Source: an uncultured virus (IMG/VR IMGVR_UViG_3300034103_001223) (Duplodnaviria; Heunggongvirae; Uroviricota; Caudoviricetes). From it: a stretch of 64,000 nt of DNA. Below the pieces are notes generated by a model. That model had not been told where the DNA came from. It made no database searches and worked only from the letters and a program-made list of their open reading frames with translations. Both the position numbers and the translations under genes were made by a program. Each line of letters opens with the position of its first letter. The stretch's first letter is position 1. Location of the stretch: IMG/VR virus record IMGVR_UViG_3300034103_001223; one strand, given 5' to 3'. Below are positions 33,997 to 52,169 of the stretch, piece by piece.

Positions 33997-35715
33997 ATGG
34001 CCGTATCTGCGAATATCTTCAGCAAGTGCTCTCCGGCACTTGGAACCAACATCCAGGCTTGCGGGTCGGTGACGATCTGCAACGCCTCCGTCATCACCGC
34101 CGACAACATCGAAGAGGTCTTCGCTGATGCGGACGGCAACTTCCGCATCATGGATGCTCTGGCTGGTTTCCAGCTTGAGGTCAAGGCGTGCGGTGCCTCG
34201 CAGGTCGGAATGTTCGACTTCCTGATGGCGAACCGTGTGAACTGGTCGAAGCGCGTGGACGCCGTGAAGTCCGCTGGCCTTGCCAGGCTGCGCCCGTTCG
34301 TGATCGCTCGCCGCAAGTGGCCGATCAACAACAAGTATTGGAACGTCAGCGGCGGTCAGGCGTCCGGTGGCAACTGGCGCGTGGACGTGTCCAGCCCGAC
34401 CGGCGTTCCGTTCGATGTGCGCTCCTTCATCGCCGATGAGGAAGTGTATATCCAGTCGGCGGGCGATGGCGGCAGCCTCTCCGAAACCCAGTGGAAGATT
34501 GTCAGCGCCACCGCGTTGACCTCGACCTCTGGCCGGTTGGTCCTGTCCTCGCTGAACTCCGGCTCCTACTTGGATGCCGACAAGCTCACCAGTCCCGTGA
34601 CTGGCTGGCTGATTCGCGGCATCAACAACAAGGATGTCACGGAGAGCTTCTGCAATCAGCCTCCGAGCTACATCACCAACTCTGATTACCCGGCGTGGTA
34701 TCAGACGATGCGTTTCACCACCTGCAAGAGTGAACTCTACGACCAGTATCGTGAGGCGCTGCTCGCTGGCGGAAACACCTACTTCCGCGATTTCCAAGAC
34801 CTCCCCGAGGCGGAAGTCAACCGGCAGGAGGGTCTGGACGCTCAAAACCGCATGGCCTACGCCATGTTCTACAACAAGCCGCTGGTGAACCAAACGATGT
34901 CCACCTACGACCAGTTGGAGGACATCACCACGGCTGCGAGCCAGTTCCTCGACATCCCGACCAGCTCGCGCTGCGTCGGCAAGCGGGCGAACATGGTGGG
35001 CATCCTCGAACAGCTCGCCGAGTGCGACCGTGTGGCGGACCTTCAGGGTGGCCAGCTCATCCTGAGCGACCTGTTCCGCACGCTCTATCTCATGCTCCGC
35101 TCGCGCCAGGCGAACGGTGACACGAGCAACATGATCGACCTGTTCATGGACACCTCGACGGCGAGCCGGTTCCATCAGGCGATGGTTACTTACTACAGCG
35201 CCCAGAACAGCGGCCTGCTCCGGGTCAACATGAACATGGGTGGCGATTACAGCATCACCAACCCTGCGCAGATCAAGAAGGCCGAGTTCGGCTTCGCTTA
35301 TCGCAGTTACCCGCTGGAGTGGCCGCAGGGCTTGGTCATCAACGTCGTCACGCACTTCTTCTTCGACGACCTCGTGACGCAGGCGGCTGCCATCGGCAAC
35401 ACCTCGCTCGGGCGGAACATCTGGATTCTGGACTTTGCGGGCATCTACCCGTTCACCGTCTCCACGGATCGGACCGTCACCAAGACCAATCCCAATGCGT
35501 TGCAGGGGATTGATGCCACCTACGCCTGCACTCCGAAAATCTACACGGAGCAGAAGACGCTCAACAGCTTCACGATGGGTATGCACGTTGAGTGCCCCCG
35601 TGCGAGCATCGTGTTGGAGAACGTCGGCGAGGAAGTCCCTGACGCCACTACGGATGACGGCAGCAGCGTCTATCCGAACGATGGCTCCGGTGTGACCACC
35701 ACGCCTGCGGACTAA
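33997..35715 (+). CDS. Major capsid protein (putative)
   Basis: Very strong codon bias, follows the scaffold gene, followed by a terminator. Confidence 0.7.
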   Translation: MAVSANIFSKCSPALGTNIQACGSVTICNASVITADNIEEVFADADGNFRIMDALAGFQLEVKACGASQVGMFDFLMANRVNWSKRVDAVKSAGLARLRPFVIARRKWPINNKYWNVSGGQASGGNWRVDVSSPTGVPFDVRSFIADEEVYIQSAGDGGSLSETQWKIVSATALTSTSGRLVLSSLNSGSYLDADKLTSPVTGWLIRGINNKDVTESFCNQPPSYITNSDYPAWYQTMRFTTCKSELYDQYREALLAGGNTYFRDFQDLPEAEVNRQEGLDAQNRMAYAMFYNKPLVNQTMSTYDQLEDITTAASQFLDIPTSSRCVGKRANMVGILEQLAECDRVADLQGGQLILSDLFRTLYLMLRSRQANGDTSNMIDLFMDTSTASRFHQAMVTYYSAQNSGLLRVNMNMGGDYSITNPAQIKKAEFGFAYRSYPLEWPQGLVINVVTHFFFDDLVTQAAAIGNTSLGRNIWILDFAGIYPFTVSTDRTVTKTNPNALQGIDATYACTPKIYTEQKTLNSFTMGMHVECPRASIVLENVGEEVPDATTDDGSSVYPNDGSGVTTTPAD

Positions 35716-36290: not shown

Positions 36291-38768
36291 GTGCCCTACA
36301 CCTACGCCAACCTGAAGTCCGAGTTGCAGCCGCTCCTGTGGCCACAGGGAGAGGCGGAGAACCTGATTCTCCCGCACAACAAGTTCTTCACGGAAGCGTT
36401 GATTGAGATCCAGCGTTGGGCGGACTGCTACCAATACAACAACAGCCAGCTCTACCGGGCCTGCTCGCGGTTCTACACCTGCGGGCTGAACGTGATGGAG
36501 GCTCCCGGTGCGTTGGTTGCTGGAAGCATCGCCAACACGATTCGCCGCCTGTCCGTCATTGACCAGATTGATCCGGCAACACAGCTTGAATCGGCGGCGG
36601 CCCCTGACCAGTGGTGTTCTCGCATCTACTACAAGCAGGTTCCCCATTGCGAGCTACTCAAGTATCAGCAGAAGGTGGCTTCCTGTTTGAGCTGTGGTGG
36701 CAACGCCAACTTCAGCGGTCTGTTCGGGTTCCCCGGCGCTTCGTGCCAGAAGGGGAACTTTCCGACGCCGACGGACGCGGAGTATCTCGCCAGCCCTGCG
36801 CTCCCGTTGGGACATCACTACCAGCCGCAAGCCTCCACGGACTCCCGATGGGGACGCTCCCGGCATGGTGTCTGGTCGCTGGAGCGGGGCCGCATTTACC
36901 TCGCGCCGTGGCTCCAGAGCACCGAGACGGTGATTGTGGAGTGGGACGGCATCAAAGCTGACTGGGATTCTCTCGACCTCGTGGTGGACAACGCACAGCT
37001 CAAGCGAGCGGTGCGCTACTACGTTCTCTGGAATCACCTGAAGGACTACGAGCGGGACGACGTGGCGGCAGCGCAGGCGGAGAAGGATTGGATCATGGCT
37101 CTGCGCGGCCTCATGCGGGATTGCCGAGAGGAAACCCGTGTGCGTGGCTGCGAGGGCAGCAATGCGCGGCAGGCGGACATTCGCATCAATGGAGATCCAG
37201 AGCCGATTCCAGCCACATTGCAGTATCCCGGCAACGGTGGGAGCGCTGGCGCTGGCGGTTCAAATCCGGGTGGAGCTGGAGGGGGAGTCCCTGGATGTGT
37301 TCCGGTCGAAGCTCCTGAATTTGATCCGCCGTCCGGTGCGATTGTTACCTATCCAACGTGGGTCACGATCACGTCTGCAACAGATGGTGCGGAGATTTAC
37401 TTCACCACGGATGGATCAGAGCCAACCCGCGCAAGCAATCGTTACAGCGGTCCTTTCCAGCTTGCTTCTGGATACAGCATCAACGCTGTCGCATTCCTTG
37501 GCGTCTGCCCGTCTCCTGAGAACTCGTCGGACTACATCTCGGCGCAGGACTACCTGAATCCTCCTGACGATCCTACCAAGACCGGCTCTGCTCCAGTGCT
37601 GACAGTTCTTTGCACTGATACAGACCGAGCTGGACGTTGGTATGTGTTCACCCCGGATGGTAGCAAGGACATCAACTGGAGGCTTGAGTTTGCCTTCAAC
37701 GCTGGCTCCACAGTAAAGCGGCTGGAGATGTATGAGACGGATGAGAATGGCGTCTGGTCAAGTGGCCGAGCGTGGGCTACTCAGTATCTCATCAACGGCA
37801 ATTTTGCCACATTCCCGCTGGTGCTTGATGACGGTGGGCAGATTAACCATGCTTATACAACAAACCTGAACGAGCCGGGTGACGACGCTCATTCGTGGGC
37901 TATGTTTGGAGAGTCGGTTGGTCGTCCGAGCACTGGTTCTCACTACAAGCTGATAATCTTTCTTGAGGACGGAACGAAGTTTTACACCACTCACAGCATT
38001 GAGTGCGTAGGGGAAGACCCGGAAGAGGGGTGCATTGAGCTTGAGGCAAACGATCAAGGGGAAGTTTCATACACTTTCAACATTGGAACAAAGCTTAGCC
38101 CTGATGGAACGATTGTTCCGGCGGTGGTTGTAACGGGAACATGGGTGGTGTTCGTTCTGGATGGGCAGTGGGTTCTTGGCAGGGTTGAAGCAGTTGATTC
38201 CAACGGCAATAGCGTGACACTTGATCCGTCTTCGTTCGTTCCCGGCGTGAGGTATGCCCCTGGAGATGTGGTTGTTCTTTCCGGTGTATCCGCAGGTGGA
38301 GTTACTGGCAGTGGTGGATGCGTGATTCTCCCACCGATACCGCCGACTACAACCACGACAACAACTGGAGGTAGCACTACAACTACAACTGCGGCACCTG
38401 ATTTGTGCTGCGATGATCTTCCGAACAGCCTTATTATTGGTGGCGGTTACGGATCACTTCCAGCATCCGGTGGATTCAGTTTTGGCCTTGGGGCTGTCTG
38501 CACAAAGCAGGTTGTTGGCGGTGAGGTTCAATACGTCGGAACCGTGAGCGAAATTGTCACATACGCCAATGCGCCGGGATATTTTGGTGATGCGTCTTTT
38601 GTGTTCAGGAGAAATTCTGAAACGTGCATTTGGACGTTGGAGCAAACTCTGAACAGTCCTTTGGATGGAAGTGTAACTGAGTCTGGAACAAGTTCTCAAA
38701 ACTGGTGTCAGGAGCGGCAGCTGGAGAGTGTTGTCGTGTTTGGCGGATTTACAGGAGTCCAGATATGA
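36291..38768 (+). CDS. Head-tail adaptor-like protein with Fn3-associated (chitobiase C-terminal-like) domain and Thr-rich linker
   Basis: MPYTYANLKSEL adaptor-type start; PEFDPPSG..VTITSATDGAEIYFTTDGSEPT motif. Confidence 0.6.
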   Translation: MPYTYANLKSELQPLLWPQGEAENLILPHNKFFTEALIEIQRWADCYQYNNSQLYRACSRFYTCGLNVMEAPGALVAGSIANTIRRLSVIDQIDPATQLESAAAPDQWCSRIYYKQVPHCELLKYQQKVASCLSCGGNANFSGLFGFPGASCQKGNFPTPTDAEYLASPALPLGHHYQPQASTDSRWGRSRHGVWSLERGRIYLAPWLQSTETVIVEWDGIKADWDSLDLVVDNAQLKRAVRYYVLWNHLKDYERDDVAAAQAEKDWIMALRGLMRDCREETRVRGCEGSNARQADIRINGDPEPIPATLQYPGNGGSAGAGGSNPGGAGGGVPGCVPVEAPEFDPPSGAIVTYPTWVTITSATDGAEIYFTTDGSEPTRASNRYSGPFQLASGYSINAVAFLGVCPSPENSSDYISAQDYLNPPDDPTKTGSAPVLTVLCTDTDRAGRWYVFTPDGSKDINWRLEFAFNAGSTVKRLEMYETDENGVWSSGRAWATQYLINGNFATFPLVLDDGGQINHAYTTNLNEPGDDAHSWAMFGESVGRPSTGSHYKLIIFLEDGTKFYTTHSIECVGEDPEEGCIELEANDQGEVSYTFNIGTKLSPDGTIVPAVVVTGTWVVFVLDGQWVLGRVEAVDSNGNSVTLDPSSFVPGVRYAPGDVVVLSGVSAGGVTGSGGCVILPPIPPTTTTTTTGGSTTTTTAAPDLCCDDLPNSLIIGGGYGSLPASGGFSFGLGAVCTKQVVGGEVQYVGTVSEIVTYANAPGYFGDASFVFRRNSETCIWTLEQTLNSPLDGSVTESGTSSQNWCQERQLESVVVFGGFTGVQI

Positions 38769-38794: not shown

Positions 38795-38941
38795 ATGCGC
38801 TTCGACCGAATCATAGAAACTCCCTGCGAGACGCCGGGGACTAGCGTGACAACGACAACCGGCAGTGATTCAACGTCCACCACCGGAAGCGGTGCCACTA
38901 GCACAACCGCTGGTGACTCGACAACGACTACGCCTGCATGA
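38795..38941 (+). CDS. 48-aa Thr/Ser-rich mucin-like peptide; not in the ORF track
   Basis: MRFDRIIETPCETPGTSVTTTTGSDSTSTTGSGATSTTAGDSTTTTPA*, coupled to the next ORF. Confidence 0.65.
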   Translation: MRFDRIIETPCETPGTSVTTTTGSDSTSTTGSGATSTTAGDSTTTTPA

Positions 38942-39246
38942 ACATCTCCTTCGTCCCATTCCACGGCTTCTGGGTGCCTATCATTGGAGTGGACGAGCAG
39001 GAAACGCTGAACGAATGCGCTGATTGCCACGACCAGTTCGACCTGCTACAGATTCGGCTAAACCAAGACGGGTGGTTTAGATGCGACCGATGCACAGCCC
39101 GGAACGACAAGTATCTGACAGAACAACATGCGCTTCGTAATCAAGTATCCCACCAGGGGCAGGCCGGGGCAGTTCATCCGGCAGGTGCAGAAGTATCGGG
39201 CATTCCTTTCCCGCCGCAATCCAGTCCGCTTTGTGGTGTCCATTGA
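38938..39246 (+). CDS. Small zinc-finger-like protein
   Basis: CADC..CDRC; 3' part overlaps the next gene. Confidence 0.45.
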   Translation: MNISFVPFHGFWVPIIGVDEQETLNECADCHDQFDLLQIRLNQDGWFRCDRCTARNDKYLTEQHALRNQVSHQGQAGAVHPAGAEVSGIPFPPQSSPLCGVH

Positions 39247-39784
39247 CGAGGACGACCGGACGATGCACGCCGCCGACGTGCAGGCGTTTATCTCCCGGCA
39301 GCGCGACATGAAGGTGTATGTCGGCGCATCGAAGGGGAAGATTGAGGCTGTCAACGCGAACTTCGACAAGCTGGGCGACTACGACGTGCTCATCCTCGCC
39401 TCCGACGACATGGTGCCACAGGTGCGCAACTACGATGTCACCATTGAGCAGTTGATGATGAAGCACTTCCCAAATCTGGACGGCTGCCTGCACTTTGATG
39501 ACGGCCTTAACAAGCATGGCCTGAACACGATGCCGATAGCGGGGAAGAAGCTGATCGACTCGTGGGGTTACATCTACCACCCCTCGTATCGTTCGGAGTT
39601 CTGCGATAACGAGTTCCAAGATGTGACTGAGAGGGATGGTAAATCGGTCAAGTCTCCGCTCTGCCTGTTCAAGCACGAGTGGGCAAAGACAGGCAAGGAT
39701 GCCACATTCATTCGCAACAGTAATTTGTGGTGTGTGGACAAACCGAACTACGAGCGGAGGAAGGCTGCTGGCTTCCCCAAATGA
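39128..39784 (+). CDS. Glycosyltransferase, GT-A fold (GT2-like)
   Basis: PTRGRP, KIEAVN, ASDDM and YRSEFCDNE. Confidence 0.75.
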   Translation: MRFVIKYPTRGRPGQFIRQVQKYRAFLSRRNPVRFVVSIDEDDRTMHAADVQAFISRQRDMKVYVGASKGKIEAVNANFDKLGDYDVLILASDDMVPQVRNYDVTIEQLMMKHFPNLDGCLHFDDGLNKHGLNTMPIAGKKLIDSWGYIYHPSYRSEFCDNEFQDVTERDGKSVKSPLCLFKHEWAKTGKDATFIRNSNLWCVDKPNYERRKAAGFPK

Positions 39785-40338
39785 GCCTATTCGTTCTCAG
39801 CATCCTCATTTGCACCCTGCCAGAGCGTGCGATGTTTCTGCGTCGCCTGATGGCATCACTTGAAAAGCAGGCTCGCGGATTCCCAGTCGAAATCCTGACC
39901 GACAATCGCGGCAAGAACATCTCCATCGGAGCCAAGCGGAACGCACTTATGAAGCGGGCCAGAGGGGAATACGTCGCATTTGTGGATGATGACGACGAGG
40001 TGGCAGCGAATTACGTTCAGCTCGTCCTGCAAGCCCTCCGCTCAAAGCCGGACTGCGCCGAGCTGCGTGGCGAGATTACCACTGACGGGAAGAACCCAAA
40101 GCCGTTTATCCACACTGTCACCTGCCAGAAGTGGCACGAGAAGGATGGCGTCTATTGGAGGATGCCAAACCACCTGAATGCGATTCGCCTCGATCTGGCA
40201 CTTCAAGCTGGATTCCCCGAGAAGAGCTTTGGGGAAGACCACGACTTCAGCAAGCGTGTTCAGCCCTTCTTGAAGACCCAGGGAGACATCCCGCAGACGA
40301 TCTACTACTATCGCTATCGAAGTAAGAAACGCGCTTGA
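39781..40338 (+). CDS. Glycosyltransferase family 2
   Basis: LSILICT, IGAKRNAL..ARGEYVAFVDDDD and GEDHDF. Confidence 0.85.
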   Translation: MSLFVLSILICTLPERAMFLRRLMASLEKQARGFPVEILTDNRGKNISIGAKRNALMKRARGEYVAFVDDDDEVAANYVQLVLQALRSKPDCAELRGEITTDGKNPKPFIHTVTCQKWHEKDGVYWRMPNHLNAIRLDLALQAGFPEKSFGEDHDFSKRVQPFLKTQGDIPQTIYYYRYRSKKRA

Positions 40339-40492
40339 CACCCGCCAAAGCTGGCGGTTAGATGGAACGCACCGGGCAGTCCATCTGACAAGCCTGCCCG
40401 GTGCTAACATCAACCAACATGCGCGAATGATTGACGCTGAAGAAACCCTTTCAGGAATGTCCCTCTAAGTCAATCAGCACTCGGCATCCTCA

Positions 40493-41290
40493 ATGAAAAA
40501 CGTAGTCTCGTATTCGCTGTTCTGGGCCGGAAAAGACGATCACGCCAAGCTCTACACGAACGGCCTTCGGGCCACTGTTCTCGCGCACCACAGCATCTAT
40601 CCCGGCTGGGAGCTGCGTATCCACCACGACGGCACGCTGCATCTCGACAAGGATTCCGAGCGGCTGATTGCTTTTGCAGAACTCGGGCTGGTGAAGCTCG
40701 TGCATGTGAAGCCTGCGACGCGCATCTGTGAAGCGATGCTGTGGCGGATGCTGCCAGTGTTCGACCAGAGCGTTGGCTACACGCTTTGCCGCGACCTTGA
40801 CTCGCTGGTGATTCCACGTGAGCGGCTGATGACGGAGGACTTCATCAAGAGCGGTGCCGGGATGCACTGCATCAACGACCACCCGCAGCATGGGGCTCCC
40901 ATCATGGGTGGAATGTGCTCTTTCAAGGGCGACATCTTCCGGCGTCTCACCGACAAGGATTCCTTCGAGCGGATGATTGCCGGGTTCTCACTCGACCGGC
41001 ACGGGGACGATCAGGATTTGCTGATGACGCGCATCTGGCCGGTCATGCAGCATTCGCTCTGCGAGCATCGCATCTCGGGGCGTGAACAGACCCCCGGCGC
41101 GATGGCCAGCTTCAAATACACCAGCACGAAGGAGTCCGAAATCAAGGACATGACGGATGCGGTGCGAGATCGTGCCGACATGCTCATTCCGTTCCTCGGC
41201 GTTCCGGGGTTCGACTACAAGCGCGTCGAGGAGTTCTTTCTGAAAGAGGGTCATCCGCAGATTTCAAAGCTGGTCAATTCCATCCCGTGA
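40493..41290 (+). CDS. Putative glycosyltransferase (DxD)
   Basis: VSYSLF, YPGWELRIH, MLWR, RDLDS, IMGGM and DQD.L...IWP. Confidence 0.55.
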   Translation: MKNVVSYSLFWAGKDDHAKLYTNGLRATVLAHHSIYPGWELRIHHDGTLHLDKDSERLIAFAELGLVKLVHVKPATRICEAMLWRMLPVFDQSVGYTLCRDLDSLVIPRERLMTEDFIKSGAGMHCINDHPQHGAPIMGGMCSFKGDIFRRLTDKDSFERMIAGFSLDRHGDDQDLLMTRIWPVMQHSLCEHRISGREQTPGAMASFKYTSTKESEIKDMTDAVRDRADMLIPFLGVPGFDYKRVEEFFLKEGHPQISKLVNSIP

Positions 41291-41973
41291 ACACGATTTT
41301 CAACTACAACTCCATCAGCCTTGCCACACTGGGGCGGCTGAACGCATTTGCCACGATGGCTTACTCCACGGTGCAAGGCATCCAGCACACCTACCTTGCG
41401 GCTCGTGACATCGTGCAGCGCGGCATCCCCGGAGCCTTCGTGGAGTGCGGGGTGGCGAACGGCGCACAGGTTTGCTCGATGGCGGAAGCCAATGGTAAGT
41501 TCGCCCGCGAGTTCCACCTGTTCGATTCCTTCCAAGGCATCCCGATGGCTGGCCCGAACGACCACGACCAACCTGGCATTGGCAAGTTCGTGGTGGACCA
41601 GAACCTCCCTCTGCGCGAACGCTTGGTGTCCAGCGGAATCAGCTCCAGCTCAGTGCAGAACGTGAAGAACAATCTCGCCAAGCACGGCTTCGGGGCTGGC
41701 TACAAGTTCCATGTCGGATGGTTTCAGGACACGGTGCCGGTCGTGGAGACTGGTCCGATTGCGCTGCTCCGACTGGATGGCGACCTCTACGAATCCACGA
41801 AGGTCTGCCTTGAGCATCTCTTCCCGAAGATTGTTCCGGGTGGTGCAATGATTCTGGACGACTACCCGCTTCCCGGTTCCCGCAAAGCGTGGGAGGAATA
41901 CTGCGAGCAGCACAAGTTGAACCTCACGCCGATCATCGCCTGTGACACGGGCGCAGCCTACTTCCAACTGTGA
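41287..41973 (+). CDS. TylF/MycF/NovP-family sugar O-methyltransferase
   Basis: GAFVECGV..G, LFDSFQG.P, GWFQDT, IALLRLDGDLYEST and DDY. Confidence 0.9.
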   Translation: MNTIFNYNSISLATLGRLNAFATMAYSTVQGIQHTYLAARDIVQRGIPGAFVECGVANGAQVCSMAEANGKFAREFHLFDSFQGIPMAGPNDHDQPGIGKFVVDQNLPLRERLVSSGISSSSVQNVKNNLAKHGFGAGYKFHVGWFQDTVPVVETGPIALLRLDGDLYESTKVCLEHLFPKIVPGGAMILDDYPLPGSRKAWEEYCEQHKLNLTPIIACDTGAAYFQL

Positions 41974-42824
41974 GCATCGCCGTCGTCTATCTTGCTTCTC
42001 CGAGGGACTGGTCACACCAAAAGTGGACCCGGTTGGAGTGCCTGCGGGCTTCATTGAAGCTGCTGCGGAAGTTTGCTCCACCGTGGCCGGTCATCATTTT
42101 CCACGAGAACTATCGCAAGGAAGATGAGGAGTTTCTTCGTGCAGTCTATCCTGACATCACGTTCTCGCAGGTGGACTTCTCCACGCACATTCACCGCTAC
42201 AAGCCGGGTTATCGTGACGCTCGGGTTGGAACCTACGGCTACGGGATGATGTGCCGCTTCTTCAGCGGGGTGATGCAGGTTCATCCGCTGCTGAATCCCT
42301 ACACGCACTACATCCGGCTGGACGATGACTCCTACATCCAGAGCCCGATCACGCCTGAGATTGTTCAGCGAATCCTCTCCAACGACTACACCTATCGCTG
42401 CACCTTCGAGGACTACTCGCCATCGCTGTGGGATTACTCCATTGAGTTCATGCGGAAGAACGGTCTGCCAGTGGACCCGAAGCTGCGCACCATCGCAACG
42501 GCTCCCTACACCAACTACCACTCCAGCAGCATCCGGCTCTGGAAGCATCACGTCGTTCGGGAATACCTGCGGGGAATCGAGGAGCAAGACGGCTGTATCA
42601 CGAAGGGGTGGGATGACGCCATCATTCAGGGTGTGATTGCCAAGATGATCTGCCCCGTGCTCGGCTACGGTGTTCATCTGGAAAACGGCTTCTGCTATCG
42701 CCATAACCAGCACTGCTCGCATCGCCCTGGGCATGGCCATTCAGAGCTGTGCTTGGATGGAAACGACGAGCACCACAAGGGCGACATTAACTACCAGTGG
42801 GGTCCACCGAAATCAATATGCTGA
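41970..42824 (+). CDS. GT15 (Kre2/Ktr mannosyltransferase)-like glycosyltransferase
   Basis: YGMMCRFFSG..HPLL..Y..YIRLDDDS, YTNY and WDDA. Confidence 0.7.
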   Translation: MSIAVVYLASPRDWSHQKWTRLECLRASLKLLRKFAPPWPVIIFHENYRKEDEEFLRAVYPDITFSQVDFSTHIHRYKPGYRDARVGTYGYGMMCRFFSGVMQVHPLLNPYTHYIRLDDDSYIQSPITPEIVQRILSNDYTYRCTFEDYSPSLWDYSIEFMRKNGLPVDPKLRTIATAPYTNYHSSSIRLWKHHVVREYLRGIEEQDGCITKGWDDAIIQGVIAKMICPVLGYGVHLENGFCYRHNQHCSHRPGHGHSELCLDGNDEHHKGDINYQWGPPKSIC

Positions 42825-43540
42825 CCAGAGTGATAGCGGTGACGCAGCTTGGCCAAGGCGTTCATTCAAAGTTCGCCAAGCGGAACCTCCATGTCAGGAA
42901 CACGCTGATTCCATCTCTCGCTCAAATCGGACTTTCAGCGGAAATCTTCCCAGCCATAATCGGTTCATCCGTGAAGGTGAGCGGTGGAGCCGCGCTGCAT
43001 GATTCGCTGGAGATTCCGCTTGGGGAAGGCTGCATTGGGAACCTGCTTTCAAACTACGAGCTTTGGAAGTTGAGTGTCACCACCGGCCAATCGGTGCTCA
43101 TCCTTGAGGATGACGCCATCCTGCCGTCGCAGAACGCACAGTTTGTGGCTGATGCGATTCGGTCCTTTCAGCAGTCCCACCAAGATCAGCCGGACATCCT
43201 CTACCTGCTTTCGCAGTCACCATTCATCAAGGACACCTTCAAGCGGTATGCTCCGAGCGAGCTGAAGGCGATAAACAACAGCATCTCCCGGCTGATTCGC
43301 ACCAGCGACCTCGCCTGCACGGCAGCTTACATGGTGACACCTTTCTCGGCTCGCCGCCTGATGGAGCGTATCACAAAGTCGAAGACGATTCCGACGGACG
43401 GCTACGTTCACACCGCGCAGATGGATGGCGCTATTGGAATCGTTGTTCAAACGGACCCAACTAAGGGGTTTATGCTGAACGAGAACTGGGCGGAGTGGAA
43501 TCACAAACACGATCCTTCGGTGAAGATGGAGCCGTCGTGA
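42818..43540 (+). CDS. Glycosyltransferase family 25-like
   Basis: G..LS.YELW..VLILEDDA..TAAYMVTP..A..L..PTD. Confidence 0.75.
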   Translation: MLTRVIAVTQLGQGVHSKFAKRNLHVRNTLIPSLAQIGLSAEIFPAIIGSSVKVSGGAALHDSLEIPLGEGCIGNLLSNYELWKLSVTTGQSVLILEDDAILPSQNAQFVADAIRSFQQSHQDQPDILYLLSQSPFIKDTFKRYAPSELKAINNSISRLIRTSDLACTAAYMVTPFSARRLMERITKSKTIPTDGYVHTAQMDGAIGIVVQTDPTKGFMLNENWAEWNHKHDPSVKMEPS

Positions 43541-44253
43541 AAATCTCCTGCGCCACACTCACCTACGCCCGCACGGGGATGCTGGAGGAAGCCATCGAGA
43601 GCTTTCTCCGGCAGGACTATCCCAACAAGGAGATGGTGATCTACAACACCTACGAGCGGCAACATCTGGTGTGCAACTCTCCCGGCGTGCGCGTCATCAA
43701 TGCCTACTCAAGACCGGCCACCCTCGGTGAAACCCGGAACAAGTGCATCGAGAAGTGCGAAGGGGAGTTCATCCTCAACCTCGATGACGACGACATCATC
43801 CTGCCGGGATACCTCTCATGGCTGGTATCCAGGCTGGAAGGCCGGGATTGGATTCGGCAGGACCGCCGCTTCTGCCTGCGCAACGGGAGGATTGTAGGGA
43901 TGGCCGAGCAAGCCACCAACCAGTCGCTTTTCAGGAAGTCGGCTTGGGCGGCTGTCGGAGGGTTCCCCCACGAGAACTCCGGGGAGGACAAGGGTTTTAG
44001 AAGACTGCTGGCTAATCGTCATGGTGGAGCGCGGGTGGAATGCCGCCCGCAAGACGCTGGATTCCTTTACCGCTGGCATTCCAACAACATCTCCCGCACG
44101 GGACCAGACCGACCGGGGCAGCTCAATGGAATGCAGACCACCAAGCGTCTCGTAATGAAGGCCATGCCGAAGCGGGGCAAGGTAACGCTGCATCCTCGCT
44201 GGGGAGTGGACTACTGGCAGCTCACACGGGAATATCTCAAAGCGCACCCATGA
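43537..44253 (+). CDS. Glycosyltransferase family 2
   Basis: LEEAIESFLRQDYPNKE, LGETRN, LDDDD and GED. Confidence 0.85.
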   Translation: MKISCATLTYARTGMLEEAIESFLRQDYPNKEMVIYNTYERQHLVCNSPGVRVINAYSRPATLGETRNKCIEKCEGEFILNLDDDDIILPGYLSWLVSRLEGRDWIRQDRRFCLRNGRIVGMAEQATNQSLFRKSAWAAVGGFPHENSGEDKGFRRLLANRHGGARVECRPQDAGFLYRWHSNNISRTGPDRPGQLNGMQTTKRLVMKAMPKRGKVTLHPRWGVDYWQLTREYLKAHP

Positions 44254-44777
44254 AAAGCGACGTGGATATTCAACCCTTATCGCATCCCGTTCTCGACGCC
44301 TGCTGCGGAAGCCGGATGATGTGGATGGACAAGGCTGATAGCCGGGTGACGTTCGTGGACAGGAGGGATTGCGACTACACAATCGCTCCCGACCGAGCCT
44401 ACCCGAGCGGCACCACCATTCGCGTGCGACCCGACGTGGTGGCGGACTTCACCGCGCTGCCGTTTCCAGACAACTCGTTCTGGCACATTGTCTTCGACCC
44501 ACCCCACATCATCCGCAATGCGGAACTTGGCACGGTGACGAAGAAATACGGCTGCCTGAACGGCGAGTGGAAGGAGATGCTACGGATCGGGTTTGCTGAA
44601 TGCTTCCGAGTCCTAAAGCCGAACGGAACGCTGATTTTTAAGTGGTGCGAAACGCAGATTCCACTGAAGGACATTCTGGCGCTTACACCGGAGAAGCCGC
44701 TCTACGGCCACAAAGGGGGCCAGAAATCAGTCACCCACTGGGTCGCATTTCTAAAGCCTGACAAATCCAACCCATGA
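44250..44777 (+). CDS. SAM-dependent amino-methyltransferase, paralogue 1
   Basis: LDACCGSRM, VFDPPH and ECFRVLKP.GTLIFKW. Confidence 0.85.
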   Translation: MKSDVDIQPLSHPVLDACCGSRMMWMDKADSRVTFVDRRDCDYTIAPDRAYPSGTTIRVRPDVVADFTALPFPDNSFWHIVFDPPHIIRNAELGTVTKKYGCLNGEWKEMLRIGFAECFRVLKPNGTLIFKWCETQIPLKDILALTPEKPLYGHKGGQKSVTHWVAFLKPDKSNP

Positions 44778-44974
44778 ACCCACTCACCCTGCAATCCACC
44801 GTCGCAGAAGTTCTGGCCGAGATAGACCGTGAGCACCAGCAGATAGTGTCCGCGCTTGGGGAGTTGACCGGCGAGTGGGATGCCGAGCAGAAGGAACGCT
44901 ACGAGGAGCTGGTGGAGGAGCGTCTGGAGATGGTGGCTGCGAGGGATTACCTTTTGAGGAGGTGCAAGCAATGA
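44774..44974 (+). CDS. Hypothetical protein
   Basis: Coupled ORF. Confidence 0.5.
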   Translation: MNPLTLQSTVAEVLAEIDREHQQIVSALGELTGEWDAEQKERYEELVEERLEMVAARDYLLRRCKQ

Positions 44975-44981
44975 GTGGATT

Positions 44982-45524
44982 ATGAATACTGTAAAAGACA
45001 CCGTAAAATGTGCGGCGGCTGCTTTAGATTCATTCCCGCCCGTGCTCGACGCCTGCTGCGGAAGCCGGATGTTTTGGTTCAACAAGCAAGATGACCGGAC
45101 GCTGTTCGTGGACAAGCGCCGCGAGACGCATCCAATAGACATTGGAACTCCTGGCACAATCGGACGAAGCCCAATCGTGGTAGATCCTGACATGCTTGCC
45201 GACTTCACAAGTCTTCCGTTCCCAGATGACACGTTCGCACTCGTCGTGTTTGACCCTCCGCACATTGAGCGGACTGCCGCGAAAGGGCTGCTGACAAAGA
45301 AGTATGGGCATCTGACAGGTGACTGGCGCGAAACTCTACGCCGAGGCTTTGCGGAGTGTTTTCGTGTGCTCAAGCCGCATGGAACGCTCATCTTCAAATG
45401 GGCTGAATCGGACTATCCAGTATCCGAAGTGCTGTCCTTAACCTGTGAGCAACCGCTATTTGGACACAAATCCGGAAAGCAGAGCGCGACGCACTGGATT
45501 GCTTTCTTGAAGCCGAACGCATGA
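44982..45524 (+). CDS. SAM-dependent amino-methyltransferase, paralogue 2
   Basis: Same motifs as 44250-44777. Confidence 0.85.
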   Translation: MNTVKDTVKCAAAALDSFPPVLDACCGSRMFWFNKQDDRTLFVDKRRETHPIDIGTPGTIGRSPIVVDPDMLADFTSLPFPDDTFALVVFDPPHIERTAAKGLLTKKYGHLTGDWRETLRRGFAECFRVLKPHGTLIFKWAESDYPVSEVLSLTCEQPLFGHKSGKQSATHWIAFLKPNA

Positions 45525-46459
45525 TCTCCGTCTGCATCACCTGCCGGAACGACCAAGAGGAAACGAACGCCACGATTCGCTCTATCAGGGAGACGGCTGG
45601 CGACCTTCCTGAATTGGTTGTGCTGGATGACGGCTCAGACAAGCCACTCCAACTGGATGACAAGAACGTAGTCTTCAGGACCGTCCACGGGAGAGCTGGG
45701 GTGGGACCAGCCCGCCATATCGCCGCCACGATGGCCAGCCGGAAGCATCTGCTCATCATAGACGCCCACATGCGATTTGAGCCGGGATGGTATGAGAAGG
45801 CTTTGGAGAGGTTGGAGTCCAGCGACGGCACCCTCTGGGGCTGCACCTGCGTCCACCTGAACGCGGAGAACATGCAGATGACCCTGGAGAGCAAGACCTA
45901 CAACGGGGCTACCTTGAACTTCTTCGGGCCGAACAAGAACCAGCCGCAGAAGATGCAGTTCATCGAGCCGGTCTGGATTCCCCATGCGCAGCATCCCAAG
46001 AACAACGACGTGATACCTTGCGTCCTCGGAGCTGCCTACTTTATGCCCCGCAGCCTGTTCTTCAAGATTGGCGGCATGAGGATGCTCCGCCACTGGGGTT
46101 CCTCAGAGCCTTACCTCTCGCTGAAAGTCTGGCTGGCTGGTGGTGAATGCAGGCAGATGACGGATGTGCGGATAGGACACCAGTTCAGGACCGCAACCAC
46201 CTACACCTACAAGATTGCCGCCTCGCTCTACAACAAGTTGATGATTGCGGCCACGCTCTTCCCGGAAGACGCCACGGCGTTCATGGTGGCGAAGATGCGC
46301 CAGCACGCGCTCCCAGCGCAGGACTTCAAGATTGCGATGGACCTGTTCCGCAACGACCAGTCCAACATTGAGATTGAGCGGGTCTTCGCGGAGAGGGTCT
46401 TCACAAGGTCTTTGGAGGAGTATCTGGAGCGGTTTGGAATGCCGAGGTTTTGGACTTGA
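45521..46459 (+). CDS. Polypeptide GalNAc-transferase (GT27)-like glycosyltransferase
   Basis: ELVVLDDGSD, DAH (DxH) and WGSSEPYLSLKVWLAGG..RIGHQFR. Confidence 0.7.
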   Translation: MISVCITCRNDQEETNATIRSIRETAGDLPELVVLDDGSDKPLQLDDKNVVFRTVHGRAGVGPARHIAATMASRKHLLIIDAHMRFEPGWYEKALERLESSDGTLWGCTCVHLNAENMQMTLESKTYNGATLNFFGPNKNQPQKMQFIEPVWIPHAQHPKNNDVIPCVLGAAYFMPRSLFFKIGGMRMLRHWGSSEPYLSLKVWLAGGECRQMTDVRIGHQFRTATTYTYKIAASLYNKLMIAATLFPEDATAFMVAKMRQHALPAQDFKIAMDLFRNDQSNIEIERVFAERVFTRSLEEYLERFGMPRFWT

Positions 46460-46493
46460 ACGATAAAGGTTAAGCTCCATAGTAGGAGGCAGC

Positions 46494-46724
46494 ATGTCGC
46501 TACCGCTGCCATCTGAATTCGAGGCACTCGTCCCCGCCGATCCGAACAACCCCACCTGCGATGAGCTGCGTGCGTTGTTGGACCGCGAGACTGGCTTGCA
46601 GGCGTTGCTGTATCGGTGGTGGTCCTACTGGTTCAATGAGGATGGCACGCTGACCGAGGATTTTACTGAGCAAATCTGCAATGCTGGCTGCGGAAGCAGT
46701 GGCTCAAGCTCCACCCCACCATGA
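46494..46724 (+). CDS. Small virion protein (Cys-containing module plus Ser tail)
   Basis: AGGAGG RBS; paralogous to the N-terminus of the next gene. Confidence 0.7.
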   Translation: MSLPLPSEFEALVPADPNNPTCDELRALLDRETGLQALLYRWWSYWFNEDGTLTEDFTEQICNAGCGSSGSSSTPP

Positions 46725-47500
46725 GTTGCCCCATACCGTCGGACTTTCAGGACTTGATTATTGACCAGAACTCCTCGGTGTGCGAGGCGTTGAGCAAGCT
46801 CGGGCCAGCCTCCCAGCTTTGGTATCAAGCCTACTCCTGCATCTACAAGAACAACCTTGAGTTCACCGAGGAGTTTCGCACGAAGATTTGCGATACCGGC
46901 TGCGGTGGCGGTGGTGGCGGGACATCCACATCCACTACTCAGGCAGGTTCCGGCGAGCAGCCTTACGACGCTGCTGGGTCGTATGAGTTCACGGTTCCTG
47001 ATGGGGTTACGGAGCTGACTGTGGTTGTGGTTGGCGGTGGTGGTGGCGGTGGTGGGCGTGGAAGTCCGTCCCTTTTCCCAACCCGAGTATGCTCTGGTGG
47101 CGGTTCCGGCGAGAAGCGAGTGCATACTTTTGCGGTCGTTCCGTCTGCGACGGTCAACGTCACTGTTGGAGGTGGCGGAACTCAAGACAGTGTGACAGGT
47201 GATGGCTCAAGCGGTGGAGCTTCCGGCGTTTTTTACAGTGCTGTCAATATCGTTGCTAACGGTGGTGGTGGTGGTCAAAACGAAGACTGCACAACTGCCC
47301 CATTCGCAGGTGGCGCTGGTGGTAGTGGTGGTAGCGGTGGAACTGGAACCAGCGGAAATGCTGGCGGTCCATCCACTGTGGCTTGCGGAAGTGGTGCTGG
47401 TGGCGCATCGGTTGGTCTTTCCGCTGGCGCTGGTTCAGCCGGAAGCATGGCTGACAACTCGCACCCTGGATTCGCTGGCGCAGTTCTGATCACTTGGTAA
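46721..47500 (+). CDS. Glycine-rich fibre/appendage protein
   Basis: FTVPDGVT.L.VVVVGGGGGGG..GAVLITW, a glycine-rich fibre domain. Confidence 0.75.
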   Translation: MSCPIPSDFQDLIIDQNSSVCEALSKLGPASQLWYQAYSCIYKNNLEFTEEFRTKICDTGCGGGGGGTSTSTTQAGSGEQPYDAAGSYEFTVPDGVTELTVVVVGGGGGGGGRGSPSLFPTRVCSGGGSGEKRVHTFAVVPSATVNVTVGGGGTQDSVTGDGSSGGASGVFYSAVNIVANGGGGGQNEDCTTAPFAGGAGGSGGSGGTGTSGNAGGPSTVACGSGAGGASVGLSAGAGSAGSMADNSHPGFAGAVLITW

Positions 47501-49446
47501 TGTCCACCACCCCCTACAAGTCAATCATCCTGCGGCCCCTCCTTGGGCCGATGGACTCGCGGTCCAACCCGGAGGACGCACCCGCGAACTCGTTCCGCTT
47601 CAAGCTGAACATGATGGTGGACGACAACGACAAGCTCGCCCGAGGCTACGGATGGGAGCGGCTGCTCGCAGATGCCTCGCCTTACGTTAATCAAGACGCG
47701 CACGACCAAGGAGACTGTTTCGACACTCTACCTCCTAGAGAGCCGATTACGCTGCTTTACGAGGCTACCAACAACCTCGGCATCCGCCGACTGATTCGCG
47801 GCCAGCAATCCTCCCTCGCCATCCTGAGCGAAAGCACTGGCGACTGGACTTACATCGGCAGGAACTTTGGGGGTGGAACAACTGCCACCCAGCTCAGGTG
47901 GTCGGTTGGTCAGGCTGGCAACACCATCATCTTCACGAACAACCGCGATAAGCCTCAAAGCTACTCCATCGGAACGCTTCCAGCAGGATGCGGCGATTCA
48001 GCCGTCAACGAGATTGCCGCACTGAACACCTTAGACGTGACGCAAGCTGCGGTCGCTGCCAGCTTCAACGGCTGCATTTTCCTGATGAACGTGGTTCAGG
48101 AGGGAACTCGCATCACGAGTCGCGTCCGGTGGAGTGGTGTGAACCGACCTCTGACTTGGGTTCCTGCTGATGACACCATAGCAAACTTCCAAGACCTCCC
48201 TTACACGGAGACAATCCTTGCAGCGCGGGAGTTGCAGGGAAACCTCATCATCTTCACCGACAAAAGTATCTATCGGTGCTTCGTGAACGGCATTTCGTTC
48301 GGGTTTGCCCGCGTCTATACCGAGCCAACGAACCGGGACAAGTGCCTCGTCTATCCGCAGTCCTTGGTGAGTGATGGAAACAACCTCTACTGGCTTGGCC
48401 GGGATGCGTTTTACCAGTGGAACGTCTATCTGGCTGAACCTCAACAGCCCGAATGGCTGTGGCGCTCCTCGAATCTGGTCATTAACACCCTCGACACGAG
48501 TTGCTGCTCCGGGCCGGTGGGCGAATACTGGCCAAACCTGAAGACAATCCTCTGGTCCTGGCCGAAAAGTGGTGAGGGATGCCTCAACTTCCGCACCATT
48601 CAGGCGAATCTGCGGGTCAACACCGCCGACATCATTGACCACGGGTTCACCGTCTTCGCCAACTACCGCAGCGACCGTCGGCAGACGCTTGATGAGTGGC
48701 TCGATGAGTATTGCACCGACGATTTCCTCGGCCTCTGCGCCAACATCGGTGGAAAAACCATTGATGACTTCTGCGCAGAGTGCAATCAGCAGCAGCTTTT
48801 CATCGGGGCATCCTCGCAGGACTACTCCATCAAGCAGCTCGGCACGAGCTACAGCCGGGAACGCTGCGAGAACGCTGCCACTGGAGAGGGTTCTTTCGAT
48901 GCACAGGGCAACTACGTCCCGTTCGTTGGGGAATACGTCAATGACGGCTATTTCAGCATCGTTCGCGGGATGTTCCCGCTGGGAAACATGGATTACGAGA
49001 AGTCCATCCGGCAGTTCCTCATGGAGCCGACCGTTCAAGACCTCCTCGGCGACTCAAACTACTGGCGGCTGCGCATCGGCACGAGCTATCAGGCGCGAGA
49101 CGCCAATCCTTACCTGAAGCCGCTCGCTTTCGGATACGAGACAGACGACTTCGCCCCGGAGTGGCAGGCGGAGTTCACCACGGACGGAGATTCCTGCGAG
49201 GTGCTCTGGCATCGGATGACGGACAGGGAAATCCGCTGCCCTGACGACATGACGACCGCTCAATACTTGGCTGCAAACGTCAGGCCGGTGAAGTCGGAGA
49301 ATTGGGTGGGACTTTTCCAGGGCCGTTTCCTCTACTTCGAGTTGTCTGTGATTGGGAAGAACGAGCTTGGTGAGGTGATTCCGCCCGTGGGCGCGGTGTT
49401 CACGCTCAGTCGCTTTCAGGTGGATGCTCGGGTGATGGCATCCTGA
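47500..49446 (+). CDS. Tail tubular/nozzle (stabilisation) protein
   Basis: Beta-propeller-like pattern with VRWS, LIIFT..SIY and LYWLG motifs; size and position fit. Confidence 0.6.
   Translation: MSTTPYKSIILRPLLGPMDSRSNPEDAPANSFRFKLNMMVDDNDKLARGYGWERLLADASPYVNQDAHDQGDCFDTLPPREPITLLYEATNNLGIRRLIRGQQSSLAILSESTGDWTYIGRNFGGGTTATQLRWSVGQAGNTIIFTNNRDKPQSYSIGTLPAGCGDSAVNEIAALNTLDVTQAAVAASFNGCIFLMNVVQEGTRITSRVRWSGVNRPLTWVPADDTIANFQDLPYTETILAARELQGNLIIFTDKSIYRCFVNGISFGFARVYTEPTNRDKCLVYPQSLVSDGNNLYWLGRDAFYQWNVYLAEPQQPEWLWRSSNLVINTLDTSCCSGPVGEYWPNLKTILWSWPKSGEGCLNFRTIQANLRVNTADIIDHGFTVFANYRSDRRQTLDEWLDEYCTDDFLGLCANIGGKTIDDFCAECNQQQLFIGASSQDYSIKQLGTSYSRERCENAATGEGSFDAQGNYVPFVGEYVNDGYFSIVRGMFPLGNMDYEKSIRQFLMEPTVQDLLGDSNYWRLRIGTSYQARDANPYLKPLAFGYETDDFAPEWQAEFTTDGDSCEVLWHRMTDREIRCPDDMTTAQYLAANVRPVKSENWVGLFQGRFLYFELSVIGKNELGEVIPPVGAVFTLSRFQVDARVMAS
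49412..49439 (+). repeat. 28-bp direct repeat, copy 1
   Basis: GCTTTCAGGTGGATGCTCGGGTGATGGC. Confidence 0.9.
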
Positions 49447-50351
49447 CAGCGGCTTACTATAAGCGTGGCAGCATCGCTGTGGACCCCAAATTCTTCGTAA
49501 TCTGGAGGTGCAGTCTGATTCCTAAGCGACCGAATGCAGGCTCTTGCGAAGTTGATCTTGTTTTGCTCAGAAACGAAGTCGTCGGCACTGGTGAGCACTA
49601 CTCCAAACGCCTCTCTCGTTAGCGGGCCGACCCTCTTTTGAATCTCCATCGCCCTCGGTTGGAGAACGTGGAAATCTGGATACTTTGGGAAGTTGGCTGG
49701 AATCCCTAACATGTGGCAATTTACTGCCTCCCTTACAGCATCAGTGTATGGACCTTCGTTTTCAATGGATACTGCAAGGGCAAGTTCAGCCTCCTTTTCG
49801 CGCTGCTTTTGCCGAGCTAGAACGCGCTTGCGCTCATCCTCCTTCGCCTTCTTCTTTGCAGCAATACTGTCGCGCCTCTTCTGAAGCTCTTCAGGGGTGA
49901 GCTTTCTTCCGACTTTGGCTGGCTCAGAACTTCCAACGGCGCACAGCTTGCGAATGAACGGAGGATTGAGTTTCCCGTCCTCATCGTAAATTGCAAGATA
50001 CGCAGTGTTGAGTGAGTCAATCTGGCTGAACACTTTTGAGATGGACTCGCAAATCTGACTCCCGTTCTCTTTTCGAGTTGCTCCGAGTAGCGTTACAGCT
50101 CGATCTCGAAGCCTCTTCTGGTCTTCTTCCAAGTTTTTTGCGTCCACCTCGGCAAGCAGCTTCCCAAGCTGCCGTTCTCCAAACTTGTTCACGACCTCGG
50201 TTGCTTCCGGGTCAACGCTTGAGAAGGACCAGTAGCAGCTCCGGTCAATTCTGAAAGCGGTTCGCTCTACTGGCTCGTCTCCTGATGAAACTCCAAACTC
50301 CCGCTCATACCACCCAAGATCGCGATTTAACTTTGGCCTGTCTATGAACAT
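49416..50351 (-). CDS. Hypothetical protein between the direct repeats
   Basis: 311-aa ORF with a copy of the module seen at 46494 and 46721. Confidence 0.65.
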   Translation of the reverse strand: MFIDRPKLNRDLGWYEREFGVSSGDEPVERTAFRIDRSCYWSFSSVDPEATEVVNKFGERQLGKLLAEVDAKNLEEDQKRLRDRAVTLLGATRKENGSQICESISKVFSQIDSLNTAYLAIYDEDGKLNPPFIRKLCAVGSSEPAKVGRKLTPEELQKRRDSIAAKKKAKEDERKRVLARQKQREKEAELALAVSIENEGPYTDAVREAVNCHMLGIPANFPKYPDFHVLQPRAMEIQKRVGPLTREAFGVVLTSADDFVSEQNKINFARACIRSLRNQTAPPDYEEFGVHSDAATLIVSRCQDAITRAST

Positions 50352-50596
50352 GGGCTTTCAGGTGGATGCTCGGGTGATGGCTTCGTGATTCGTTTCACCT
50401 CCGTAATCACCCGCATAGCAGCAACTCCAACATTTCCAAACGTGGCGTGGTCCTCAATTCCTTGCGTTCGGCAGAGGTGTGAAAGGATGTCGAAGTTGTG
50501 ACGCTTGGAGATTTCAGCAGCATCTTCCTTTGAGAGCTTGCTGAGAGCGTGTTCAGCATCAGCCACTGCCATTTCAGTCCACGACGGGTTATGCAT
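50342..50596 (-). CDS. Hypothetical protein
   Basis: ORF within the leftward block. Confidence 0.5.
   Translation of the reverse strand: MHNPSWTEMAVADAEHALSKLSKEDAAEISKRHNFDILSHLCRTQGIEDHATFGNVGVAAMRVITEVKRITKPSPEHPPESPCS
50354..50381 (+). repeat. 28-bp direct repeat, copy 2
   Basis: Identical to 49412-49439. Confidence 0.9.
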
Positions 50597-50879
50597 TGTT
50601 AGAGGCTTGCAGTGCATCGTGCCACGCCTCGACTTTTTCACGCACCATTTCCACCGCCATGCGTTGCGCGGTTTCGGCACTCACGGCATCGACCGGCACG
50701 GTATCCATTCCGGCCTCGTAGCAATGCATGACCCACTTTTCGGGATAGCGGATGTGTCCACTTGTGACAACGATTCTCAGACCGCCGATTTCGGTTGTCC
50801 ACGACGTAGGCTTTCGAGCCTTGTCGTCACGGCTGTATGATGTTGTGTCCTTCCAGTTCATATTGTTTTTCACGTTCAC
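50589..50879 (-). CDS. Hypothetical protein
   Basis: WKDTTSYSR..HIRYP..W motif. Confidence 0.6.
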   Translation of the reverse strand: MNVKNNMNWKDTTSYSRDDKARKPTSWTTEIGGLRIVVTSGHIRYPEKWVMHCYEAGMDTVPVDAVSAETAQRMAVEMVREKVEAWHDALQASNNA

Positions 50880-52145: not shown

Positions 52146-52169
52146 AAGCTATATCAATAAAGATTGCTG

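Follow-up and report, generated by a model that had tools for sequence, protein, structure and literature searches.

A GT27-like glycosyltransferase gene beside a virion protein gene in an uncultured tailed phage: relationship to polypeptide GalNAc-transferases and a possible role in virion O-glycosylation

Background

Enzymes of glycosyltransferase family 27 (GT27), the polypeptide N-acetylgalactosaminyltransferases (GalNAc-Ts), are treated as the eukaryotic initiators of mucin-type O-glycosylation. What, then, is a gene of this kind doing among the structural genes of a bacterial virus? The question is raised by an open reading frame (ORF) at positions 45521..46459 (+ strand) of a 64,000-nucleotide stretch of DNA, hereafter the window, from an uncultured member of the Caudoviricetes (IMG/VR record IMGVR_UViG_3300034103_001223). 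A preliminary description, made from the letters of the sequence, had read the product of this gene as a GALNT-like enzyme. In this paper, we report a computational analysis which supports its assignment as a soluble, cytoplasmic, lectin-less relative of the GT27 polypeptide GalNAc-transferases, and we propose, with a probability of roughly 0.55, that it initiates O-glycosylation of Thr clusters on virion proteins while the rest of a neighbouring sugar cluster extends and methylates the glycan.

The enzyme is a variant that joins two known things, GT27 enzymology and the glycosylation of phage virions. A full-text literature search, judged from titles and abstract openings, found no description of a GT27-like enzyme of a phage. 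If the proposed role is true, it would offer a route in the bacterial cytoplasm to site-directed O-glycosylation of Thr clusters that is useful for glyco-engineering, and virion glycosylation, so far documented for mycobacteriophages, would reach unrelated uncultured phages by way of a different initiating enzyme. A compact phage GT27-like enzyme would also bear on the origin of the GT27/GT60 clade.

Sequence and structural relationship to GT27

The gene starts with an ATG which overlaps the stop codon of the upstream gene (44982..45524) as ATGA, and encodes 312 residues that make up a catalytic domain only. The start codon is considered sound because homologues begin with the same MIS- residues. 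Both the ORF and all the motifs quoted in the preliminary description, LLIIDAHMRF (D81-A82-H83), PCVLGAAYFMPRSLFFKIGG, WGSSEPYLSLKVWLAGG and RIGHQFR (H220), are present in the translation.

The protein was searched against 177,635 distinct PDB sequences using phmmer. All 16 matches at E ≤ 10 are GT27 enzymes, the best having an E value of 1e-9 over residues 3-232; fifteen are named polypeptide GalNAc-transferase and the sixteenth, 8uhv, is Toxoplasma GalNAc-T3, so that the matches comprise GalNAc-T1, T2, T4, T7, T9, T10 and T12 as well as the Toxoplasma enzyme. In the alignment to GalNAc-T2, DAH is paired with DSH, WGSSEPYLSLKVWLAGG with WGGENLEISFRVWQCGG and RIGHQFR with RVGHVFR. A word-indexed search then yielded 153 relatives, 63 of which (27-64% identity) were aligned to build a family profile. 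The top 16 PDB matches of this profile are all GT27 (E 3.3e-35 to 5.1e-26), with alignments spanning positions ~4 to 227-301 of 310, whereas the best match outside GT27, K4CP chondroitin synthase (E 2.5e-12), covers positions 4-107 only. Bacterial GT2 structures match only positions ~1-120, the N-terminal third, with E values of 2.5e-12 or worse, and no GT7 chain was found among the PDB matches of the profile.

An AlphaFold2 model built from the 63-sequence alignment has a predicted local distance difference test score (pLDDT) of 97.0 and a predicted template modelling score (pTM) of 0.94. All 31 among the Foldseek matches listed, through rank 48, are GalNAc-Ts, with query-normalised template modelling (TM) scores of 0.69-0.78. 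VIA-align, which is independent of Foldseek and was run over 48,161 chains, places model residues 1-312 on residues 117-428 of the GalNAc-T1 chain (Z 28.6, 281 residues, 2.7 Å) and aligns 279 of the 312 residues with Toxoplasma GalNAc-T3 (TgGalNAc-T3; Z 27.6). Next after the GalNAc-Ts come B4GALNT1 (Z 18.6) and then generic GT-A enzymes with Z ≤ 18.4, K4CP among them at 18.1. The placement in GT27 is thus a ranking against all PDB chains, obtained by profile search and by VIA-align, and the resemblance of the protein to GALNT is far beyond chance, at a sequence identity to GalNAc-Ts of 17-21% in structural alignments.

The sequence and profile searches, the comparison of the model and the invariance of D81, H83 and H220 (see below) all agree with the GALNT-like reading of the preliminary description, and the structure prediction that it had suggested as a check gave a high-confidence model whose best matches, by both Foldseek and VIA-align, are GalNAc-Ts. 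Clustering with ordinary bacterial GT2 enzymes, which it had named as the outcome that would speak against this reading, was not what we found, the GT2 match being N-terminal only and no better than E 2.5e-12. Identity as an ordinary bacterial GT2 enzyme was also considered in its own right and rejected, as the GT2 similarity is confined to the N-terminal ~100 residues, Z does not exceed 18.4 and the metal motif is DAH, not DxD.

The domain databases are less specific. Pfam places PF00535, the generic nucleotide-binding half, at residues 3-134 (E 2e-13), and gives a sub-threshold match to PF11397 (GT60) at residues 44-101, with 17.6 bits against a cut-off of 21; this second model is matched by 4 of the 63 family members (E ≤ 0.01). 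NCBIfam and PHROGs returned weak N-terminal matches only, those in NCBIfam being far under the cut-offs. The protein stops at residue 312 and has no lectin match in Pfam, which bears out the earlier statement that a ricin lectin domain is missing. Neither the translation nor the AlphaFold2 model contains a signal peptide, membrane anchor, stem or N-terminal hydrophobic segment, and the first beta-strand of the model starts at residue 2.

Conserved residues of the active site

Ten residues (T18, D37, G60, D81, H83, W90, G170, G207, H220 and N238) are invariant in the 63-sequence alignment, and R58, R85, A171, E196, K202 and W204 are at least 90% conserved. The three elements of main interest are located as follows.

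45761..45769, + strand: D81-x-H83, the DxH metal motif
46106..46108, + strand: E196, near-invariant acid of the WGSSE motif
46178..46180, + strand: H220, the C-terminal His

Residue pairs were counted along the GalNAc-T2 line of the phmmer alignment, with the chain numbered from 139.

D37: GalNAc-T2 D176
R58: GalNAc-T2 R201
D81-x-H83: GalNAc-T2 D224-x-H226 (D81-A82-H83 on D224-S-H226)
G170-A171: GalNAc-T2 G308-G309
W192: GalNAc-T2 W331
H220: GalNAc-T2 H359
R223: GalNAc-T2 R362

According to PMC7185993, GT27, GT60, GT7 and GT2-CHS form one clade, in which DxH in place of DxD is specific to GT27 and GT60, and this pair of families is retaining; the C-terminal His is a metal ligand in GT27. The DAH that the preliminary description had set against DxD is therefore real, but it marks no departure from GT27, DxH being the hallmark of GT27/GT60 (PMC7185993). 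The distal metal-binding His proposed there corresponds to H220, which is invariant and aligned with the His of RVGHVFR. The acid motif reads WGSSE in the phage protein and WGxDE in the family consensus, as against WGGE(N/Q) in GT27, so that the conserved acid stands one position later in the phage enzyme. E196 may be either a one-residue shift of the GT27 Glu or the mark of an inverting mechanism.

Gene neighbourhood and its conservation

The window is phage DNA, with a large terminase subunit (27845-29434, - strand), helicases, nucleases, a virion protein and an ORF of 3929 residues. The source is an uncultured phage of the 72-kb class, two relatives of which (G002 and G005) are complete 72-kb genomes with terminal repeats; other related contigs are designated by the letter L. 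All genes from 29775 to 49446 lie on the + strand and encode, in order, proteins of 833, 477, 572, 184 and 825 residues, then a 7-kb sugar cluster, and after it an ORF of 76 residues, a glycine-rich protein of 259 residues and a virion protein of 650 residues. The genes referred to below are as follows.

33997..35715, + strand: 572-residue structural protein with C-terminus VYPNDGSGVTTTPAD; Thr cluster at nucleotides 35695-35703
36291..38768, + strand: 825-residue fibre- or appendage-like protein; CHB_HEX_C_1/Fn3_assoc domain at residues 346-402
38795..38941, + strand: 48-residue ORF; head MRFDRIIETPCETPG, then a Thr/Ser-rich tail
39128..39784, + strand: glycosyltransferase of 218 residues (GT_218); phrog_14945
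39727..40338, + strand: GT2-type glycosyltransferase of 203 residues (GT2_203); homologue of the N-terminal domain of mycobacteriophage Che8 gp108
40493..41290, + strand: 265-residue protein with no assigned family; conserved in L019 and G005
41287..41973, + strand: TylF-type sugar O-methyltransferase; PF05711, E 4.9e-37
41970..42824, + strand: GT15-like transferase; PF01793, E 3e-7; best PDB match 1s4n, E 9e-10
42797..43540, + strand: GT25-family transferase; PF01755, E 3.6e-11
43495..44253, + strand: GT2 transferase of 252 residues (GT2_252); second most widely conserved transferase in the lineage
44250-44777 and 44982-45524, + strand: two small paralogous methyltransferases of ~175-180 residues; weak Methyltransf_25/11 matches
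In the sugar cluster, alongside the two small methyltransferases: 66-residue ORF
46494..46724, + strand: 76-residue ORF; N-terminal module as in the next gene, Ser/Thr/Pro tail
46721..47500, + strand: 259-residue glycine-rich protein; same N-terminal module, short Gly/Thr/Ser linker, Gly_rich_2 domain
47494..49446, + strand: 650-residue virion structural protein; phrog_3287; conserved downstream neighbour of the GT27-like gene

Viral contigs were searched with the enzyme, both as a single protein and as a 14-sequence alignment, and with an alignment of the 650-residue protein, and 11 distinct contigs whose 650-residue homologues are 26-67% identical were compared. A gene of the enzyme family lies directly upstream of the 650-residue gene in 10 of the 11 (hmmsearch E 1e-102 or better), with a gap of 0-31 nucleotides in five contigs; the eleventh, L050, has only 1.5 kb of upstream sequence and is too short to judge. 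The other transferases of the cluster vary in presence and position between contigs. GT2_252 has homologues in 8 of the 11 loci (it is absent from L043, L044 and the short L050) and also in G002, the complete genome that includes L043. The constant position of the enzyme gene in all 10 testable contigs, set against the variability of the others, indicates that it is a core gene of the structural module in this lineage. The idea that it might be the sole transferase in relatives of 40% identity was rejected on the evidence of G002, which has two further PF00535 matches elsewhere as well as homologues of GT_218, the TylF-type enzyme and GT2_252.

Candidate acceptor proteins

All 575 window ORFs of at least 40 residues were scanned for runs rich in Ser and Thr. 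Such a run occurs in seven of them, only two of which are in plausible genes, those of the 825-residue protein and the 48-residue ORF, and both sit immediately upstream of the sugar cluster. In the 825-residue protein the run is a Pro-flanked poly-Thr linker at residues 684-702 (nucleotides 38340-38396), with the conserved body of the protein on one side of it and a C-terminal tip that varies on the other. Four relatives (L002, L006, L009 and L013) have the linker at the corresponding place, and its length differs among them. Short forms of the 48-residue ORF (40-48 residues) are kept in L002, L006, L007, L009 and L019, and one locus with such an ORF has an enzyme that is only 58% identical. 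In L013, the head of this ORF is followed by T/S repeats and BNR/Asp-box repeats in two tandem 339-residue proteins. The complete genome G005 has tracts in its homologue of the 825-residue protein and in an adjacent 43-residue ORF, besides eight others in short ORFs (41-122 residues) that have no homologue in the window and are likely to be spurious frames. Across the 72 kb of the complete genome G002 there is a single tract, a linker that precedes a DUF5977 domain close to the C-terminal end of the homologue of the 572-residue protein, and a Thr cluster follows a VYP motif at or near the end of the 572-residue protein in all five lineages compared.

The peptide encoded at 38795-38941, which the preliminary description had put forward as acceptor of the first sugar, is plausible in that role and is strengthened by its genomic context. 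The linker of the 825-residue protein and the C-terminal tail of the 572-residue protein are further candidate acceptors.

Among these, the 572-residue protein is probably the major capsid protein, a lead drawn from its neighbours in the ESM Atlas, the gene order and a hairpin after the gene. In the ESM Atlas clusters closest to it, 12-54% of the members carry Crass_capsid or SU10_MCP. Pfam, PHROGs and the PDB profile search found nothing for this protein, and an AlphaFold2 model from five sequences was unusable (pLDDT 37). The hairpin (35738-35770, + strand) is GC-rich, has 15 pairs with a T-run after it, begins 23 nucleotides past the stop of the gene and is the sole strong terminator-like site within 35000-51000, a region in which the promoter and terminator scan was otherwise at chance level overall. 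Such a hairpin fits a highly expressed capsid gene.

Several observations on these proteins may be added. The first ~680 residues of the 825-residue protein are 80-94% identical among the close relatives, and residues ~703-825 are wholly different between the window and L009 on the one hand and L002 and L006 on the other; from this pattern, the C-terminal ~120 residues look like a swappable distal tip with a possible part in receptor binding. The tandem 339-residue proteins of L013 (1685-2704 and 2708-3727) carry a sialidase-type propeller signature. The 76- and 259-residue proteins share an N-terminal module of ~65 residues followed by Cys-x-x-Cys and a Gly/Ser/Thr stretch, and the 76-residue ORF, like the 48-residue one, looks like a "head plus linker" form of a longer fibre-type protein.

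Comparison with known glycosylation systems

The GT27 enzymes used for comparison were GalNAc-T1 (8v9q), GalNAc-T2 (4d0t/2ffu), GalNAc-T10 (2d7i) and Toxoplasma GalNAc-T3 (8uhv/6s22). The whole catalytic domain, the DxH motif, the C-terminal His, the G-loop and the W-G...W..GG...GH.FR block are common to these and to the phage enzyme; a UDP (uridine diphosphate)-sugar donor and Thr/Ser acceptors in Pro-flanked clusters would be further points of likeness. In GT27 itself the donor is UDP-GalNAc, from which alpha-GalNAc passes to Ser/Thr of polypeptides. However, the phage enzyme is without the type II membrane anchor, the stem and the ricin-type lectin domain, the last of which is present in most GT27 members, and has 312 residues compared with about 500-630. 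It is also encoded by a bacterial virus and cytoplasmic, whereas GT27 enzymes belong to the secretory pathway.

Members of GT60, the protist and prokaryotic polypeptide/Skp1 alpha-GlcNAc-transferases, share DxH and the clade (PMC7185993). This family was compared by way of its Pfam model, PF11397, whose match to the phage enzyme is below cut-off, and no solved GT60 structure was among the matches of the PDB searches. The GT2-CHS enzymes, including K4CP, and GT7 belong to the same GT-A clade (PMC7185993) and have an acid at the xED-Asp position, on which E196 of the phage enzyme falls in the ungapped alignments; the confinement of DxH to GT27/GT60, as given in PMC7185993, excludes both.

On the side of phage biology, Freeman and colleagues reportedly linked gp108-110 of Che8 to mycobacteriophage virion glycosylation in 2023. 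GT2_203 is 37% identical to the N-terminal half of Che8 gp108 over 188 residues (blastp, E 1.7e-28), and the TylF-type methyltransferase matches the C-terminal part of the same protein (E 2e-9). The window resembles the Che8 type in having phage transferases together with a sugar O-methyltransferase, and also has a C-terminal Thr cluster on its 572-residue protein; PMC12619734, citing Freeman 2023, places glycans at the C-terminal ends of the subunits of capsid and tail tube in mycobacteriophages. The cluster differs from that of Che8 in being larger, with seven transferase-like genes, and in lying inside the structural module. Che8 gp108 is not GT27-like, and gp109 and gp110 have no GT27-like match in the window; these three are the only glycosyltransferases annotated in positions 40000-59471 of the Che8 record, and none matches the GT27-like gene.

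Proposed function and alternative explanations

Homology, fold, conserved residues, synteny and Thr tracts are the observations from which we infer the donor, the acceptor, metal binding, the order of transfers and the stereochemistry. D81, H83 and H220 would hold a divalent metal, and the contacts to a UDP-sugar would come from D37, R58, the G170-A171 loop, W192 and R223. In the late phase of infection, the enzyme would place the first sugar on hydroxyl groups of Thr/Ser, within unstructured Thr clusters that are flanked by Pro and belong to proteins of the phage particle itself. The candidate sites are the C-terminal tail of the 572-residue protein, the poly-Thr linker of the 825-residue protein, the 48-residue peptide and the S/T linkers of the 76- and 259-residue proteins. 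Extension and methylation of the glycan would then fall to the 39128-44253 cluster, with its six further transferase-like genes and its TylF-type O-methyltransferase. Only tentatively do we go further and suggest, with the odds leaning somewhat against it, that this lineage of uncultured tailed phages performs true mucin-type O-glycosylation in the bacterial cytoplasm, on Thr clusters of capsid tails and fibre linkers, and that this viral and prokaryotic family would then be the closest non-eukaryotic sister, possibly the source, of the animal and protist initiators.

A number of observations weigh against an initiating role on virion proteins. In ungapped alignments, E196 falls on N335 of GalNAc-T2, on Q in GalNAc-T10 and on N in TgGalNAc-T3, which is the xED-Asp position, while a Ser of the phage protein is paired with the GT27 Glu; since inverting GT-A enzymes use the xED acid as their catalytic base (PMC7185993), an inverting, sugar-extending activity is possible. 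PF02709 (Glyco_transf_7C) was undetected in the 312-residue protein and found in 4 of the 63 family members. Che8 glycosylates its virions without a GT27-like enzyme, so that the gp108-like GT2_203 could be the initiator. With regard to acceptors, the capsid identity of the 572-residue protein is a lead from the ESM Atlas, and L044-L047 and L049 showed no strong Thr tracts at distances of up to 10 kb from the gene.

In the most serious alternative, the enzyme extends a glycan begun by another transferase of the cluster, for instance GT2_203, possibly by inversion with E196 as base. Apart from the position of this conserved Glu, where GT27 has N or Q, its appeal lies in Che8, whose virion glycosylation runs on gp108-110, none of them shown to be GT27-like. 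Yet a register shift of a single residue would place E196 on the GT27 Glu, DxH is limited to the retaining GT27 and GT60 (PMC7185993), and, compared with K4CP, GT27 is the closer match by more than 20 orders of magnitude in E value and by ~10 Z units. The gene is moreover the sole transferase kept by the 650-residue virion gene in the 10 testable contigs while the others vary, and a constant enzyme beside a virion gene with variable partners is easier to reconcile with a first step that is obligatory than with an extension that is optional. We consider extension unlikely, though worth keeping in mind.

A quite improbable alternative is that the target is not the virion at all; the enzyme might modify phage DNA, a protein of the host or a polymer of the host envelope such as lipopolysaccharide or capsule, in the service of superinfection exclusion or anti-restriction. 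Serotype conversion and the glucosylation of DNA are the roles for which phage glycosyltransferases are most familiar (PMC12619734), DNA methyltransferase-like genes are also present in the window, and 16 among the 120 homologues listed are labelled "glycosyltransferase involved in cell wall biosynthesis" in one public source. However, the enzyme has no membrane segment or lipid-carrier-type domain, its closest solved relatives act on polypeptides, and its gene stands within the + strand structural block from 29775 to 49446, with Thr-rich tracts flanking the cluster, and not in an early or lysogeny region; no integrase was found among the window ORFs scanned. It would be more surprising still if the protein were what is left of a transferase, inactive or with a structural role only, and retained for assembly of the neighbouring virion protein. 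The tight, conserved adjacency to the 650-residue gene and the Ser in place of the GT27 acid would suit such a remnant, but 63 sequences with identities down to 27% show no variation in any of the metal- and nucleotide-binding residues, a pattern to be expected of an active enzyme. An active transferase that initiates O-glycosylation on the virion remains our preferred reading.

Distribution of the family

A phmmer search over 1.84 billion representatives returned 1921 proteins at E ≤ 1e-3, 792 at E ≤ 1e-10 and 133 at E ≤ 1e-30, the last figure being a count of clusters at 50% identity. The ESM Atlas clusters nearest to the enzyme are mostly viral. Longer relatives of 500-1260 residues (P0081, P0091, P0104 and others; P0127-P0240), some of them from metagenome-assembled genomes (MAGs) of Prevotellaceae, Bacteroidales or Clostridium, combine the GT27-like domain in one chain with another GT domain, a partial LanC-like domain (PF05147) or both, and no lectin fusion was present among the 120 longer relatives listed. 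The fusion of a peptide-handling module of the LanC type to a GT27-like domain is a hint of peptide substrates.

Searches of 50,697 phage records by tblastn with the enzyme and with the large terminase subunit gave no match at E 1e-5, and with that no cultured relative and no clue to the host. A scan of the genomes of 185,579 species with one peptide pattern found no close full-length cellular homologue, an absence that is weak evidence because a single pattern was used. The same scan gave 31 weak or partial loci (E 3e-6 to 9e-4, 22-54% identity over fragments), mostly in MAGs of Alphaproteobacteria, Rickettsiales and Burkholderiales.

Other genes of the cluster and the window

The GT15-like gene is a second eukaryote-type protein-glycan enzyme of the sugar cluster. 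Its best solved relative, 1s4n, is titled "Glycolipid 2-alpha-mannosyltransferase" and is a yeast enzyme that extends protein O-mannose chains. The 265-residue protein at 40493..41290 had no match in Pfam, NCBIfam, PHROGs or PDB.

Both small methyltransferases carry FDPPH, which resembles motif IV of amino-methyltransferases. Just one of the pair is represented by a homologue in L009, and L010, L013 and L019, the 58-59% relatives, lack both; the two are probably cargo with no bearing on the glycan.

The 3929-residue ORF (52170-63959, - strand) is ~39-69% identical in relatives and matches only PHROGs that have no assigned function. Its size, together with the 72-kb terminally repeated genomes, is suggestive of the N4-type virion RNA polymerases.

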